From the NCBI RefSeq assembly GCF_009931435.1, contig NZ_CP043414.1: a DNA stretch of 64,000 nt, one strand, 5' to 3'. A program made the position numbers and the translations under genes. A model generated the notes under the pieces. It did no database searches. It was not told the DNA's origin and saw only the letters and a list, made by a program, of their open reading frames with translations. This document shows, piece by piece, positions 48,266 through 53,471 of this stretch; position 1 is the first letter of the stretch; the number at the start of each line of letters is the position of its first letter. Origin of the DNA: Escherichia coli. Lineage in GTDB: Bacteria > Pseudomonadota > Gammaproteobacteria > Enterobacterales > Enterobacteriaceae.

Positions 48266-48766
48266 ATGATCAATGCACTGGGATTGCTGGAAGTGGACGG
48301 CATGGTCGCCGCGATAGATGCAGCTGATGCCATGCTCAAAGCAGCTAACGTTCGTCTGCTCAGTCACGAAGTGCTTGACCCTGGTCGCCTAACGCTGGTG
48401 GTGGAAGGCGATCTGGCGGCGTGTCGTGCGGCGCTGGACGCAGGTTGTGCTGCCGCGATGCGTACCGGGCGTGTCATCAGCCGTAAGGAGATCGGTCGGC
48501 CAGACGATGACACCCAGTGGCTGGTTACTGGCTTTAACCGCCAGCCGAAGCAATCCGTAAAGGAACCCGACGCGCCAGTTATCGTCGCGGAATCTGCTGA
48601 CGAGTTGTTGGCGCTGTTAACATCAGTACGTCAGGGAATGACGGCAGGAGAAGTGGCTGCCCACTTTGGCTGGCCGCTGGAAAAAGCCAGAAATGCGCTC
48701 GAACAGCTCTTTTCTGCCGGGACGTTACGTAAACGCAGTAGTCGTTATCGTCTCAAGCCCCATTAA
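48266..48766 (+). CDS. eutK: ethanolamine microcompartment shell protein EutK (BMC domain plus C-terminal helix-turn-helix-like domain)
   Basis: ORF track 48260..48766; start at the third codon gives MINALGLLEVDGMVAAIDAADAMLKAA..., 166 aa. Confidence 0.9.
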   Translation: MINALGLLEVDGMVAAIDAADAMLKAANVRLLSHEVLDPGRLTLVVEGDLAACRAALDAGCAAAMRTGRVISRKEIGRPDDDTQWLVTGFNRQPKQSVKEPDAPVIVAESADELLALLTSVRQGMTAGEVAAHFGWPLEKARNALEQLFSAGTLRKRSSRYRLKPH

Positions 48767-48811
48767 CCTGTCGGAGGTGCCGGGTGTCCTACAACACCCG
48801 GCATTAACATC

Positions 48812-49864
48812 ATGAAAAAGACCCGTACAGCCAATTTGCACCATCTTTATCATGAACCCTTACCCGAAAACCTGAAGCTCACGCCGAAGGTCGAAGTGGA
48901 TAATGTTCATCAACGGCAAACAACGGATGTCTATGAACATGCTTTGACGATTACCGCCTGGCAGCAGATTTACGATCAGCTGCATCCGGGCAAGTTTCAT
49001 GGTGAATTTACGGAAATTCTACTCGATGATATTCAGGTTTTTCGTGAATACACCGGTCTGGCGCTGCGTCAGTCGTGCCTGGTCTGGCCGAACTCGTTCT
49101 GGTTTGGCATTCCGGCGACACGCGGTGAGCAGGGATTTATCGGTTCGCAATGTCTGGGAAGCGCAGAAATAGCGACGCGCCCTGGAGGAACCGAGTTTGA
49201 ATTAAGTACGCCGGACGATTACACGATCCTTGGCGTGGTGCTTTCTGAAGATGTCATCACCCGTCAGGCTAACTTTTTGCATAACCCGGAAAGGGTGCTG
49301 CATATGTTACGTAACCAGTCGGCGCTGGAAGTGAAAGAGCAGCATAAAGCCGCGCTGTGGGGCTTTGTCCAACAGGCTCTGGCGACATTTTGCGAGAACC
49401 CGGAAAATCTCCATCAGCCTGCAGTGCGAAAAGTGCTGGGGGATAATTTGCTAATGGCGATGGGGGCGATGCTGGAAGAAGCGCAGCCAATGGTGACGGC
49501 GGAAAGTATCAGCCACCAGAGTTACCGTCGCTTGTTGACCCGCGCGCGTGAATATGTGCTGGAGAATATGTCCGAACCGGTAACCGTGCTGGATTTGTGC
49601 AATCAACTGCATGTCAGCCGCCGCACGCTACAAAACGCGTTTCACGCTCTTTTAGGCATTGGCCCAAACGCGTGGCTGAAACGCATTCGCCTGAACGCCG
49701 TGCGCCGCGAACTGATAAGCCCGTGGTCGCAAAGTACAACGGTCAAAGATGCCGCCATGCAGTGGGGATTCTGGCATCTGGGGCAATTCGCCACGGATTA
49801 CCAGCAACTGTTTGCCGAGAAGCCGTCTCTGACGCTACATCAGCGGATGCAGGAACTGGAGTGA
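48812..49864 (+). CDS. eutR: AraC-family transcriptional activator of the eut operon EutR
   Basis: 350-aa ORF with C-terminal AraC-type helix-turn-helix. Confidence 0.9.
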
Positions 49865-49940
49865 GGGTGAGGGCCGGATGAGGATGGTGTTTGATCCGGT
49901 CCATAGTGAAGTTACAAATTACGTTGAATTGCTATGTATT

Positions 49941-50258
49941 TTATTGCCCAACGGGATAGGCGATAAACAAACCGACAATTGTCAGAATACACGCCAGCAG
50001 GAATACCAACATACAATTTACGCGCTTTCGCGAAATTTTAAATAAATAGCAAAATAGTGTTGTTACCACGATCACTACCGGGATAGTCATAAAATTAATA
50101 ACGATGAGTGCTATCAATCCAAAACTTGCTCCTCCACCGTGGGGAATAAAAATGTGTTCTTCAAAATAAACTTCTATAGCAAATGCCAGCACACATCCCA
50201 GAAAACTCATATCCAGATGAGGGTGCCATTTACTTTCTTTATTTGATGTGTCTGACAT
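49941..50258 (-). CDS. hypothetical small membrane protein (105 aa, three predicted transmembrane helices)
   Basis: ATG 50256-50258 with GGGAG Shine-Dalgarno about 9 nt upstream, TAA at 49941-49943; three hydrophobic stretches after a polar N-terminus; visibly AT-rich relative to its flanks; I do not recognise the protein. Confidence 0.6.
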   Translation of the reverse strand: MSDTSNKESKWHPHLDMSFLGCVLAFAIEVYFEEHIFIPHGGGASFGLIALIVINFMTIPVVIVVTTLFCYLFKISRKRVNCMLVFLLACILTIVGLFIAYPVGQ

Positions 50259-50298
50259 TCTTAAATGCTCCCGTGAGCAAACTGGCGCAAAATAATTT

Positions 50299-51561
50299 CT
50301 AAGATTGCTGATAAGACGTCGCTGTTGTCCGGCACTCCGGGCAGATAAACGCGTAAATTATCCCTTCGCCATATTGTTCAATATCGGCATAATCCAGTTG
50401 CGCAAGAAACATCATTGTGTGGGAACATTGCGGACAGAGAGGATATTCCGCGTCCTGAATCCAGGTTGGATGCCCGCCAAGTTGCGAGAAAGAGACAGGT
50501 AAAAATGGGTCTGCGGCAAATAACGGTGACCTAAGGTTTCCCTGTCTCATGCTGTTTACAGGGAGTCGACGCCATTCCGATACATCATCCGGCAGCTAGG
50601 CAGGCGGGATATTTTTTGCAGACAAATGAGCGTTACCCTTTGAGTCCATGTAGCCGAAAATGGTGCTGTAGGCGGTGCAACATTCGCAAGTCACGACGCG
50701 AAAACTGCCGTTATCGCTAAGACCCGTTGCCTTCAGGTCAACGTCGAAAAGATTTGTTAGGGGCAATGCGCACTTTGGACAGGTATCGCTGCGTTCATCA
50801 ACAACACGCAAAGCTTCGCAAGACCCGGTGCTTTTCATCTCCAGATGAAAACATTGAGGAAAATAGAGATTACGCCTTTGATCTTCAGCGGTTAACTCCC
50901 AACCGGCCTCATGCGCATATTCTTCTGGCGCGATGTAAAGTGAACTGCGCCACAGCGGCGGGTTATTGCGCCAGTAGGCAAAACGTTCAACAACAACGTC
51001 ATCCCCAATCCATGCCAGACATTGCAGAATACAATTTCTGTTTTCTGCATCATCCTCAACCCGTTCTAACAGCGTATCGCGAACATCCGCTGGGGCGCGG
51101 TGGAAAGGCAGAGGAGAATAAGCGTCTAAATCATCATAAGAGATCCACTCTCGTAAATATGCATCCAGATTTGCCTGGGTAAACGCCGCCAGACAAAGAC
51201 AAATCTCCTGAGCGTGTTCATATTCACCAGACGCAAAGCGTTCTGTGGCGTAATCAGCCATCAGCTGCGCTTGATCGGCGGTCAACTGTTGATACAGGGC
51301 ATCGGTGGGAGCGGGGCAGGGAGTCCAGTCGATTAACGCATCGAATTTCCGTGGCTGGTGAACTAATTTCAGCATGGCAATCGGATCGCTTAGCCCAGCA
51401 AACACATTCACGGTCTTTTTATTTTTCCTGATATATTCATCGTGCTCACGCTGCTGTTGTGCCTGAACGCAGGGCATACAGTATCCGTCAGTACGCGCAG
51501 CGGTTTCCGGAAGAATGGTTGATGTACAAGCGGGGCTTTTACAGGGAATACGGTGAGTCAT
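50299..51561 (-). pseudogene. Cys-rich multi-zinc-ribbon protein gene with tentatively DUF1963/YwqG-like C-terminus; 420-codon frame interrupted by one in-frame TAG at 50596-50598
   Basis: ORF track entries 50596..51561 (321 aa) and 50299..50550 (83 aa) are in the same frame; the 45 nt between them read through as LPDDVSEWRRLPVNS; AAGGAG Shine-Dalgarno 8 nt upstream of ATG 51561; Cys pairs CKSPAC..CMPC, CPKC..CECC and CPQC..CPEC. Confidence 0.6.
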
Positions 51562-51698
51562 AGAGGCGCTCCTTGCCTGAGGATATTAAGTCGAAAGAGA
51601 TTATTATTAGATATTAGGGTGTCACTATGGCACACAAATTAAACAGAATTAATTTCAAGCCACAAACATAGGGTTATTTTTCTTTTATTTTCATGATA

Positions 51699-52601
<903 letters not shown>

Positions 52602-53471
52602 TTACCGCTTTCTCGAGTGTGCTTTCTGGTTGTCAAACCAGTGGAAATAACTGATCACGCCTTCGGCAATGGCTGTGGCGATTTTCTGGCGAAATGCCGC
52701 CGTGCCTAACAGCCGCTCTTCTTCCGGGTTGGTGATAAAAGAAGTTTCCACCAGCACCGAAGGAACAGATGGCGATTTCAACACTACAAACGCGGCTTGT
52801 TCGGTGTTGCGACTGTGCAGCTTATGCACCGGCTTAATCTTCTTCAGAATATGTGAGCCGAGCGTCAGGCTGTTTTTAATAGTATCGGTTTGTACCAGAT
52901 CAAACAGCACTTGTTGCAATAGGTGATCCTTGTCAGTCGCTTTTTTACCGGCAACTTCATCAGCGCGGTTTTCGCGTTCAGACAAGTATTTCGCCATTGC
53001 GCTACTTGCGCCGCGGTTCGAGAGAGCAAATACCGAAGCACCGGCAGCTTTCGGGTTAGTAAAGCCGTCGGCGTGAATTGACATAAACAGGTCAGCGCCA
53101 TGTTTATGGGCGATTTCAACGCGATCGTACAGCGGGATAAACGTATCGCCAGAACGCGTTAAACGCGCATCAATGCCATGATTACGCAAAATGGAACGGA
53201 CGTTTTTGGCAATCGCCAGCACCACATGTTTTTCTTTCGATCCATTGCGACCAATCGCTCCGGTATCAATTCCGCCGTGGCCTGGATCGAGAACAACGAC
53301 ACGTTTGCCGCCGCTTTTTTTGGCTTTCGGCTTACTGTGTCCGTTACTGGTTTTTAAAGGTTCTTCTTTGGCGATGGCTTGCGACATTCCTGACAACGTC
53401 AGGGCAGCCAATCCGGCTTTCAGCACCTGGCGGCGCGAAGTGAGTGTTTTTAGTGGTTTAAAAGTGCTCAT
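52602..53471 (-). CDS. amiA: N-acetylmuramoyl-L-alanine amidase AmiA
   Basis: 289-aa ORF with twin-arginine signal TSRRQVLKAG. Confidence 0.95.
   Translation of the reverse strand: MSTFKPLKTLTSRRQVLKAGLAALTLSGMSQAIAKEEPLKTSNGHSKPKAKKSGGKRVVVLDPGHGGIDTGAIGRNGSKEKHVVLAIAKNVRSILRNHGIDARLTRSGDTFIPLYDRVEIAHKHGADLFMSIHADGFTNPKAAGASVFALSNRGASSAMAKYLSERENRADEVAGKKATDKDHLLQQVLFDLVQTDTIKNSLTLGSHILKKIKPVHKLHSRNTEQAAFVVLKSPSVPSVLVETSFITNPEEERLLGTAAFRQKIATAIAEGVISYFHWFDNQKAHSRKR

Follow-up and report, generated by a model that had tools for sequence, protein, structure and literature searches.

Introduction

DUF1963, Tsr4 and PDCD2 were unified by Burroughs and Aravind (2014; Front Genet 5:424; PMC4275035) as a single domain, TYPP (TSR4/YwqG/PDCD2), and within it these authors described a "family two", for which a Salmonella seed sequence was used, whose members carry an uncharacterised N-terminal alpha-helical domain and often a C4 zinc finger, of the DksA/TraR type in several members. 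They proposed a chaperone-like role in protein-protein interaction, and stated that nothing supports a ribosomal role in bacteria. A second group of described systems comprises the "heterogeneous polyimmunity loci" of Zhang et al. (2012; PMC3482391), a survey that lists HEAT and ankyrin repeats as immunity scaffolds. We examined a segment of 1834 bp (positions 49865-51698) between the stop codons of eutR and hemF in a window of 64,000 nucleotides from an Escherichia coli chromosome (RefSeq assembly GCF_009931435.1, contig NZ_CP043414.1). The segment holds a 420-codon gene of the TYPP superfamily, called the large gene below, and ypfK, which codes for a membrane protein of 105 amino acids (aa). 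An earlier reading of the window, made without database searches (the sequence-only reading), had taken it for an accessory insert carrying a two-gene module that might be an effector/immunity-like or defence-related pair.

The large protein shares with TYPP family two the fusion of a helical N-terminal domain to TYPP, and differs from canonical DUF1963 proteins (1PV5; Bacillus subtilis YwqG) in that only its C-terminal ∼55 residues align, to the first unit. Like Tsr4, PDCD2 and PDCD2L, it belongs to the TYPP superfamily, combines a protein-binding mode lacking a catalytic site with accessory zinc-binding modules; unlike them, it has no MYND insert, and its gene is dispensable, patchily distributed and without a link to ribosome genes. 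Polyimmunity proteins (SUKH, SuFu, Imm-Ank, HEAT, Imm10) resemble it as cytoplasmic, small-to-medium binding proteins with a patchy, strain-variable distribution. In contrast to the immunity proteins of polymorphic toxins, it has no adjacent cognate toxin at the loci where one was looked for, and most loci of the large gene are not polyimmunity arrays.

Results and Discussion

An inherited segment deleted from most E. coli

The segment has been inherited vertically and is what remains, in a state of decay, of a variable locus downstream of hemF; a clean deletion has removed it from most E. coli. In a K-12 derivative, eutR and hemF are convergent with almost no spacer, as the sequence-only reading had stated, and only 5 nt separate their stop codons (locus coordinates of the gene ends: eutR, 1764; hemF, 1770). 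Of 5426 complete E. coli genomes, 28 carry the segment, in each case on the chromosome and at the hemF-eutR junction, with 91.5-98.8% identity; the remaining genomes (∼99.5%), like K-12, match its flanks only. With K-12 as the reference, this presence/absence polymorphism looks like an insertion. Across the Enterobacteriaceae, the large gene and ypfK follow hemF in E. albertii, where the eut operon comes next, and in E. fergusonii (which has no eut operon), Kluyvera georgiana and a Klebsiella-like strain, where maeB comes next. Yokenella has hemF, the large gene and maeB, without ypfK; Superficieibacter and an uncultured enterobacterium have the large gene after hemF; Citrobacter sp. S2-9 has an ankyrin gene between hemF and the large gene, followed by eutR; and Salmonella has the two genes in swapped order (hemF-ypfK-large gene-eutR). 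The strand of the large gene and its site downstream of hemF are constant, whether eutR or maeB lies beyond. This hemF-linked position indicates that presence is the ancestral state, and that the polymorphism is really a lineage-specific deletion.

The same synteny, extending over at least eight genera, argues for inheritance and against the horizontal acquisition that had been put forward earlier. The segment bears no marks of mobility: neither the open reading frame (ORF) list nor the sequence between eutR and hemF contains an integrase, insertion sequence (IS) or tRNA, and a repeat search returned only short repeats at chance level, none of them at the segment borders. We consider it improbable that the two genes form a horizontally acquired cassette, be it an effector/immunity, toxin/antitoxin or anti-phage defence pair, even though the segment is rare in E. 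coli, ypfK is AT-rich as the sequence-only reading had noted (GC content 0.38, compared with 0.54 in hemF), the same junction elsewhere holds conflict-like cargo (a ZorD/DpdE-like SNF2 helicase, a TacAT pair and a Tli3 gene), and the pair is still adjacent in Salmonella despite the swapped order. Neither protein matched PADLOC-DB v2 (E<=1), PHROGs or NCBIfam models, and neither has a toxin or enzyme domain. In addition, each gene is found alone, the large gene outside the Enterobacteriaceae never has a YpfK-like neighbour, and its loss beside an intact ypfK gives no sign of addiction. What survives of the proposed effector/immunity or defence pair, which also has no adjacent toxin, is an immunity-like soluble protein as a reasonable lead.

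Sequence identity around the junction is uneven. Over the eut region, the window shares 95-99% identity with 5424 E. coli records (98.2% with the best of them), whereas the flanks of the segment are only 93-94% identical to most E. coli. Assignment of the window to E. fergusonii, which these low flank values had raised, was rejected in view of the eut identities and of the occurrence of the exact YpfK protein in E. coli and other Escherichia. In comparison with K-12, parts of eutK/eutR (48300-49200) are 97-100% identical, and the 3' ends of eutR and hemF together with amiA (49200-49864 and 51699-53400) only ∼90-95%. Among E. coli alleles of the large gene, divergence reaches 0.25 synonymous substitutions per site (dS), which together with the low identity of the flanks suggests old alleles or haplotypes, or imports by recombination from other Escherichia, around the junction.

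Two coding sequences with a loose link

The arrangement of three minus-strand ORFs co-directional with hemF was confirmed at the coordinates in Table 1, as were the 40-nt gap between the large-gene stop and the ypfK start and the good Shine-Dalgarno sites ahead of both genes, which for ypfK is GGGAG at a distance of 9 nt from the ATG. Selection on genuine coding sequences is evident for both genes: against relatives, the ratio of nonsynonymous to synonymous substitution rates (dN/dS) lies between 0.13 and 0.34 in the large gene and between 0.12 and 0.42 in ypfK. In other E. coli, RefSeq annotates an intact 420-aa "DUF1963 domain-containing protein" and a 105-aa "hypothetical protein".

The view of the two genes as one module did not hold. 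They are adjacent in Escherichia, Kluyvera, the Klebsiella-like strain and, in swapped order, Salmonella. Yokenella, Citrobacter, three E. coli genomes and all 77 non-enterobacterial loci have the large gene but no ypfK, and ypfK is intact where the large gene is dead, namely in the window, in E. fergusonii and in a Salmonella lineage that retains only a decayed remnant. We conclude that the link between them is loose and lineage-specific, and that they do not form an obligate two-component system.

The transcriptional setting bears on a further explanation, that YpfK anchors the TYPP protein at the inner membrane, or is regulated by it, in an envelope or haem accessory function co-expressed with amiA-hemF. 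A promoter and terminator scan found no consensus sigma-70 promoter on the coding strand of the spacer between hemF and the large gene (counts were below the shuffled expectation), and no terminator was seen after hemF. Points in favour of such a membrane complex are that the genes run in the direction of hemF and near it without an obvious promoter, that they are adjacent in two alternative enteric orders, and that their position downstream of hemF is constant whatever lies beyond. However, many Firmicutes, Verrucomicrobia and Planctomycetes have the large gene with neither hemF nor YpfK nearby, and each gene survives alone, so that we regard this explanation as unlikely.

Architecture of the large protein

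The large protein consists of an N-terminal C4 zinc ribbon, a HEAT-like domain (residues ∼30-220) and a C-terminal TYPP beta domain, which carries two further C4 sites, a GGHP motif and a conserved Gln. Twelve of its 20 cysteines are invariant or nearly so in an alignment of 26 diverse members, and fall into three C4 clusters (C7/C12/C28/C31, C261/C264/C292/C295 and C376/C379/C407/C410). Other conserved features of this alignment are SQxGGxPxWxQD and a C-terminal YQQ[ST], and residues G362, G363, P365, Q369 and Q388, invariant in 26/26 members, correspond to the GGxP motif and conserved Gln of TYPP/DUF1963. The match to Pfam DUF1963 (PF09234) is weak, covering residues 359-406 (independent E-value, 5.8e-5) and only positions 1-51 of the 216 in the model. 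In hhalign, a comparison with the canonical DUF1963 alignment gave 93.4% probability (E=2.5e-7) over 55 columns. The N-terminal C7/C12/C28/C31 pattern is conserved, and had no match to Pfam zf-dskA_traR even at E<=10. An AlphaFold2 (AF2) model of the large protein had a mean predicted local distance difference test (pLDDT) score of 92.7; phmmer against PDB sequences gave no match, and Foldseek against the PDB returned only noise, mostly Fab fragments (E>0.07).

This architecture appears to fit TYPP family two as the defining paper describes it. Both HEAT-like repeats and TYPP domains serve to bind proteins or peptides, and no catalytic signature is present. Most likely, the large protein would bind another protein, and either sequester or chaperone it. 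A search of 5.8 billion proteins recovered a coherent full-length family of ∼420 aa in Enterobacteriaceae, Chitinimonas and Paenibacillus, to which a genome scan added Verrucomicrobia, Planctomycetes, Clostridium, Lysinibacillus, Sporosarcina and many more Paenibacillus. One Paenibacillus sp. member (667 aa) has an N-terminal fusion to DUF2625 (PF10946), reminiscent of polyimmunity proteins.

Decay of the large gene

The sequence-only reading had recognised a Cys-rich frame of 420 codons split by one stop, and the frame indeed contains a single TAG. It did not conclude that this stop makes the gene a pseudogene here. The amber codon, which replaces Trp322, removes the C-terminal GGHP/CxxC unit of TYPP, the most conserved part of the protein, and the large gene is therefore a pseudogene in the window, with its original activity probably lost. 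Unless the stop is a sequencing error, the mutation is recent, since the frame beyond it is otherwise intact, and private to the source strain, since the exact 321-aa product is missing from a collection of ∼15 billion proteins.

Other lineages have lost the gene in other ways. An E. fergusonii genome (locus 2698-3960) carries an independent amber at Gln129 of the 420-aa gene. In a Salmonella lineage (locus 4909-5356), only ∼150 nt from the 3' end, coding for the C-terminus, are left of the large gene (FSQLGGHPAWVQDAEYPTCPTC...), with ypfK intact upstream, and the remnant is followed by GC-rich, possibly REP-like (repetitive extragenic palindromic) sequence. Five viable S. Agona isolates were reported with an IS15DI resistance island inside a DUF1963 gene beside eut; the coordinate listed for it borders immediately on a deletion site given as "etuA", which presumably means eutA (PMC12054066). 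Such repeated and independent disruption or loss indicates that the large gene is dispensable. Programmed read-through of the TAG was also considered and was rejected, because no feature supports it and the independent disruptions elsewhere favour simple decay.

YpfK, a small enterobacterial membrane protein

YpfK is an orphan of the Enterobacteriaceae, a three-helix inner-membrane protein. Its topology, which agrees with that described in the sequence-only reading, comes from hydropathy and from a low-confidence AF2 model (pLDDT 59, too poor for a fold search) with helices at residues 13-32, 43-73 and 77-100. Membership of the YpfK family (Pfam PF26378) rests on precomputed Pfam labels of homologues, carried by 18 of 19 homologue clusters and by neighbour genes at four comparison loci; the protein shares with members of PF26378 its length, three hydrophobic helices and the conserved motifs FIPxGGG and LFIAYP. 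A profile search of 1.84 billion representative proteins found only 8 clusters, all enterobacterial, and every homologue with a source name comes from Escherichia, Salmonella or Kluyvera. The identical protein is present on 102 contigs of E. coli and other Escherichia. Since the profile search gave no remote homologue, no function can be derived for YpfK by homology, and literature searches for ypfK and STM2452/STM2453 yielded nothing relevant. The statement in the sequence-only reading that no function could be assigned to the pair stands, both families being uncharacterised.

Genomic context and a tentative immunity-type role

Among 80 loci of the large-gene family, 16, all in Bacillales, have polyimmunity neighbours of SUKH, SuFu, Ank or Imm10 type, and 64 do not. 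In Paenibacillus aquistagni (locus 5647-14071) and Lysinibacillus odysseyi (locus 1-17290), the 420-aa family gene lies in long co-directional arrays that contain SUFU, SMI1_KNR4/SUKH, Ank-DUF4274, DUF6138, canonical DUF1963, Cys_rich_CPCC, DUF7638/7639 and Imm10. These arrays fit the polyimmunity loci of Zhang et al. (2012; PMC3482391). Immunity-type neighbours were also seen in enteric bacteria, namely a Tli3-family gene with SEL1/TPR genes (strains WL297 and 2017-02-2CC) and an ankyrin protein (Citrobacter). From the Bacillales arrays and these enteric neighbours, our best specific guess is an orphan immunity-type binding protein. The large protein might then neutralise an incoming interbacterial toxin, a role that we put forward tentatively and rank above the alternatives.

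Next in this ranking is a role in the cytoplasm as the dedicated chaperone, or assembly factor, of a housekeeping protein, such as Tsr4/PDCD2 has for uS5, with ypfK as an unrelated neighbour. Membership of the TYPP superfamily and the chaperone-like role proposed in its defining paper (PMC4275035) favour such a factor, as do the report of PDCD2 as a uS5 chaperone (PMC7736825), the housekeeping neighbours in one Paenibacillus lineage and, in P. chitinolyticus, an upstream neighbour resembling a threonyl-tRNA-synthetase gene. Yet dispensability and repeated loss or disruption are not what one expects of a factor with a core client, the defining paper states that nothing supports a function of the bacterial versions in ribosome biogenesis, and no neighbour is conserved across taxa. 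In a Pfam census of 103 co-directional neighbours at the non-enterobacterial loci there was no conserved partner, with major facilitator superfamily (MFS) transporters, epimerases, hydrolases and regulators each appearing 2-3 times. We find the chaperone doubtful, and place it below the immunity-type protein; the YpfK-anchored complex and the effector or defence pair share the last place.

Overall, the best explanation, an ancestral locus with two separate genes, the first of which would encode a protein-binding product, has in our estimate a probability of roughly 0.6; the immunity-type role proposed within it is held with low confidence. Several points weigh against it. The immunity context is guilt by association, covering 20% of the examined loci and Bacillales only, and the other loci have heterogeneous, often housekeeping neighbours. 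No toxin gene adjoins family members in the window or the annotated loci, the remaining loci not having been systematically checked, and DUF1963/YwqG was not found in the first 300,000 of the 357,715 characters of the immunity-domain survey text (PMC3482391). The TYPP authors favour a generic chaperone-like role (PMC4275035), and eukaryotic relatives are reported as dedicated chaperones of ribosomal protein uS5 (PMC7736825). Adjacency of ypfK in two gene orders hints at a functional link that treating the genes as separate plays down. As to ancestry, the GC content at third codon positions (GC3) of both genes is low in every host, compatible with an old foreign origin; in the window, GC and GC3 are 0.38 and 0.36 in ypfK, 0.50 and 0.48 in the large gene, and 0.54 and 0.57 in hemF. 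Finally, the divergence of the E. coli alleles points to possible regain rather than simple retention, and some carriers may have regained the segment by recombination from other Escherichia.

A broader proposal, which we hold to be rather unlikely, is that TYPP/DUF1963 would be an unlisted immunity class, the site downstream of hemF a polyimmunity-type locus, and YpfK a membrane immunity protein. The content of the site (TYPP, YpfK, Ank, SEL1/TPR, Tli3) would then turn over with the toxins met, and YpfK would be embedded in the membrane, guarding against a membrane-targeting toxin.

The segment is catalogued accessory DNA that was inherited, not inserted; its two annotated genes belong to known Pfam families, and one of them is dead in the window. 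Its only new element is the contextual hint that ties TYPP family two to polyimmunity-type arrays, a testable idea for bacterial DUF1963/YwqG. If true, the immunity-type role of the large protein would add a new fold to the toxin-immunity catalogue and give a bacterial context for the Tsr4/PDCD2 chaperones.

The arrays in P. aquistagni and L. odysseyi also hold two kinds of DUF1963 proteins, and unannotated families of ∼123, 224, 265 and 754 aa recur in them, which may be unrecognised immunity-type families.

Junction cargo in other strains and layout of the segment

The cargo of the hemF-eutR junction differs between E. coli strains. In E2348/69 (locus 4795-7680) and GF130 (locus 7796-11913), a 1149-aa SNF2 helicase and a 223-aa orphan lie between hemF and the 420-aa gene. 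The core of the helicase resembles ZorD/DpdE (410 bits in PADLOC). Among NCBIfam models, that of the SCO1167/SCO6262 helicase matches it best, with 671 bits, under the cut-off of that model, and the two genes could be an uncharacterised defence-type pair. In E7-1N7 (locus 4793-5585), the same position is taken by a pair consisting of a TacA antitoxin and a GNAT acetyltransferase toxin; the spacer downstream of hemF therefore accepts new cargo. WL297 (locus 146-2440) and 2017-02-2CC (locus 147-2440) keep the 420-aa gene, and have in place of ypfK a 221-aa orphan, two SEL1/TPR genes and a gene annotated as Tli3-family type VI secretion system (T6SS) immunity. With no effector nearby, the junction content in these two strains resembles an islet of orphan immunity. 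No Pfam, NCBIfam or PADLOC match was obtained for the orphans of 221 aa and 223 aa.

Table 1. Features of the eutR-hemF segment and its borders, in coordinates of the window.
Feature	Position	Strand	Remarks
eutR	48812..49864	+	TGA stop ends at 49864
Whole eutR-hemF intergenic segment	49865..51698	.	1834 bp here, 5 nt in K-12
GC-rich stem-loop GGGCCGGAT...ATCCGGTCC	49871..49902	+	directly after eutR stop
ypfK, 105 aa, three-helix inner-membrane protein (Pfam PF26378 YpfK)	49941..50258	-	intact
Large gene, 420 codons: C4 zinc ribbon, HEAT-like helical domain, TYPP (DUF1963/YwqG superfamily)	50299..51561	-	pseudogene here
ORF, 83 aa from internal ATG	50299..50550	-	downstream part of broken frame
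Premature amber TAG, codon 322 (Trp322)	50596..50598	-	TGG in 10/10 compared relatives
ORF, 321 aa	50596..51561	-	upstream part of broken 420-codon frame
Spacer, hemF stop to large gene	51562..51698	-	137 nt, AT-rich
Shine-Dalgarno AAGGAG	51569..51574	-	7 nt upstream of large-gene ATG, read from sequence
hemF	51699..52598	-	stop (TTA on + strand) starts at 51699

The CPZ-55 prophage remnant of K-12 (intZ, yffL-yffP; K-12 locus 13455-17714) is absent from the eutB-eutA boundary (∼45300 in the window), which leaves the eut operon uninterrupted. Rfam had no match within 49500-52000. The stem-loop that follows eutR was not called by the terminator scan, because it has no T-run; the plus strand of 49865-49940 folded in RNAfold with an energy of -20.9 kcal/mol, and the structure is possibly a transcript-end hairpin for the convergent genes.

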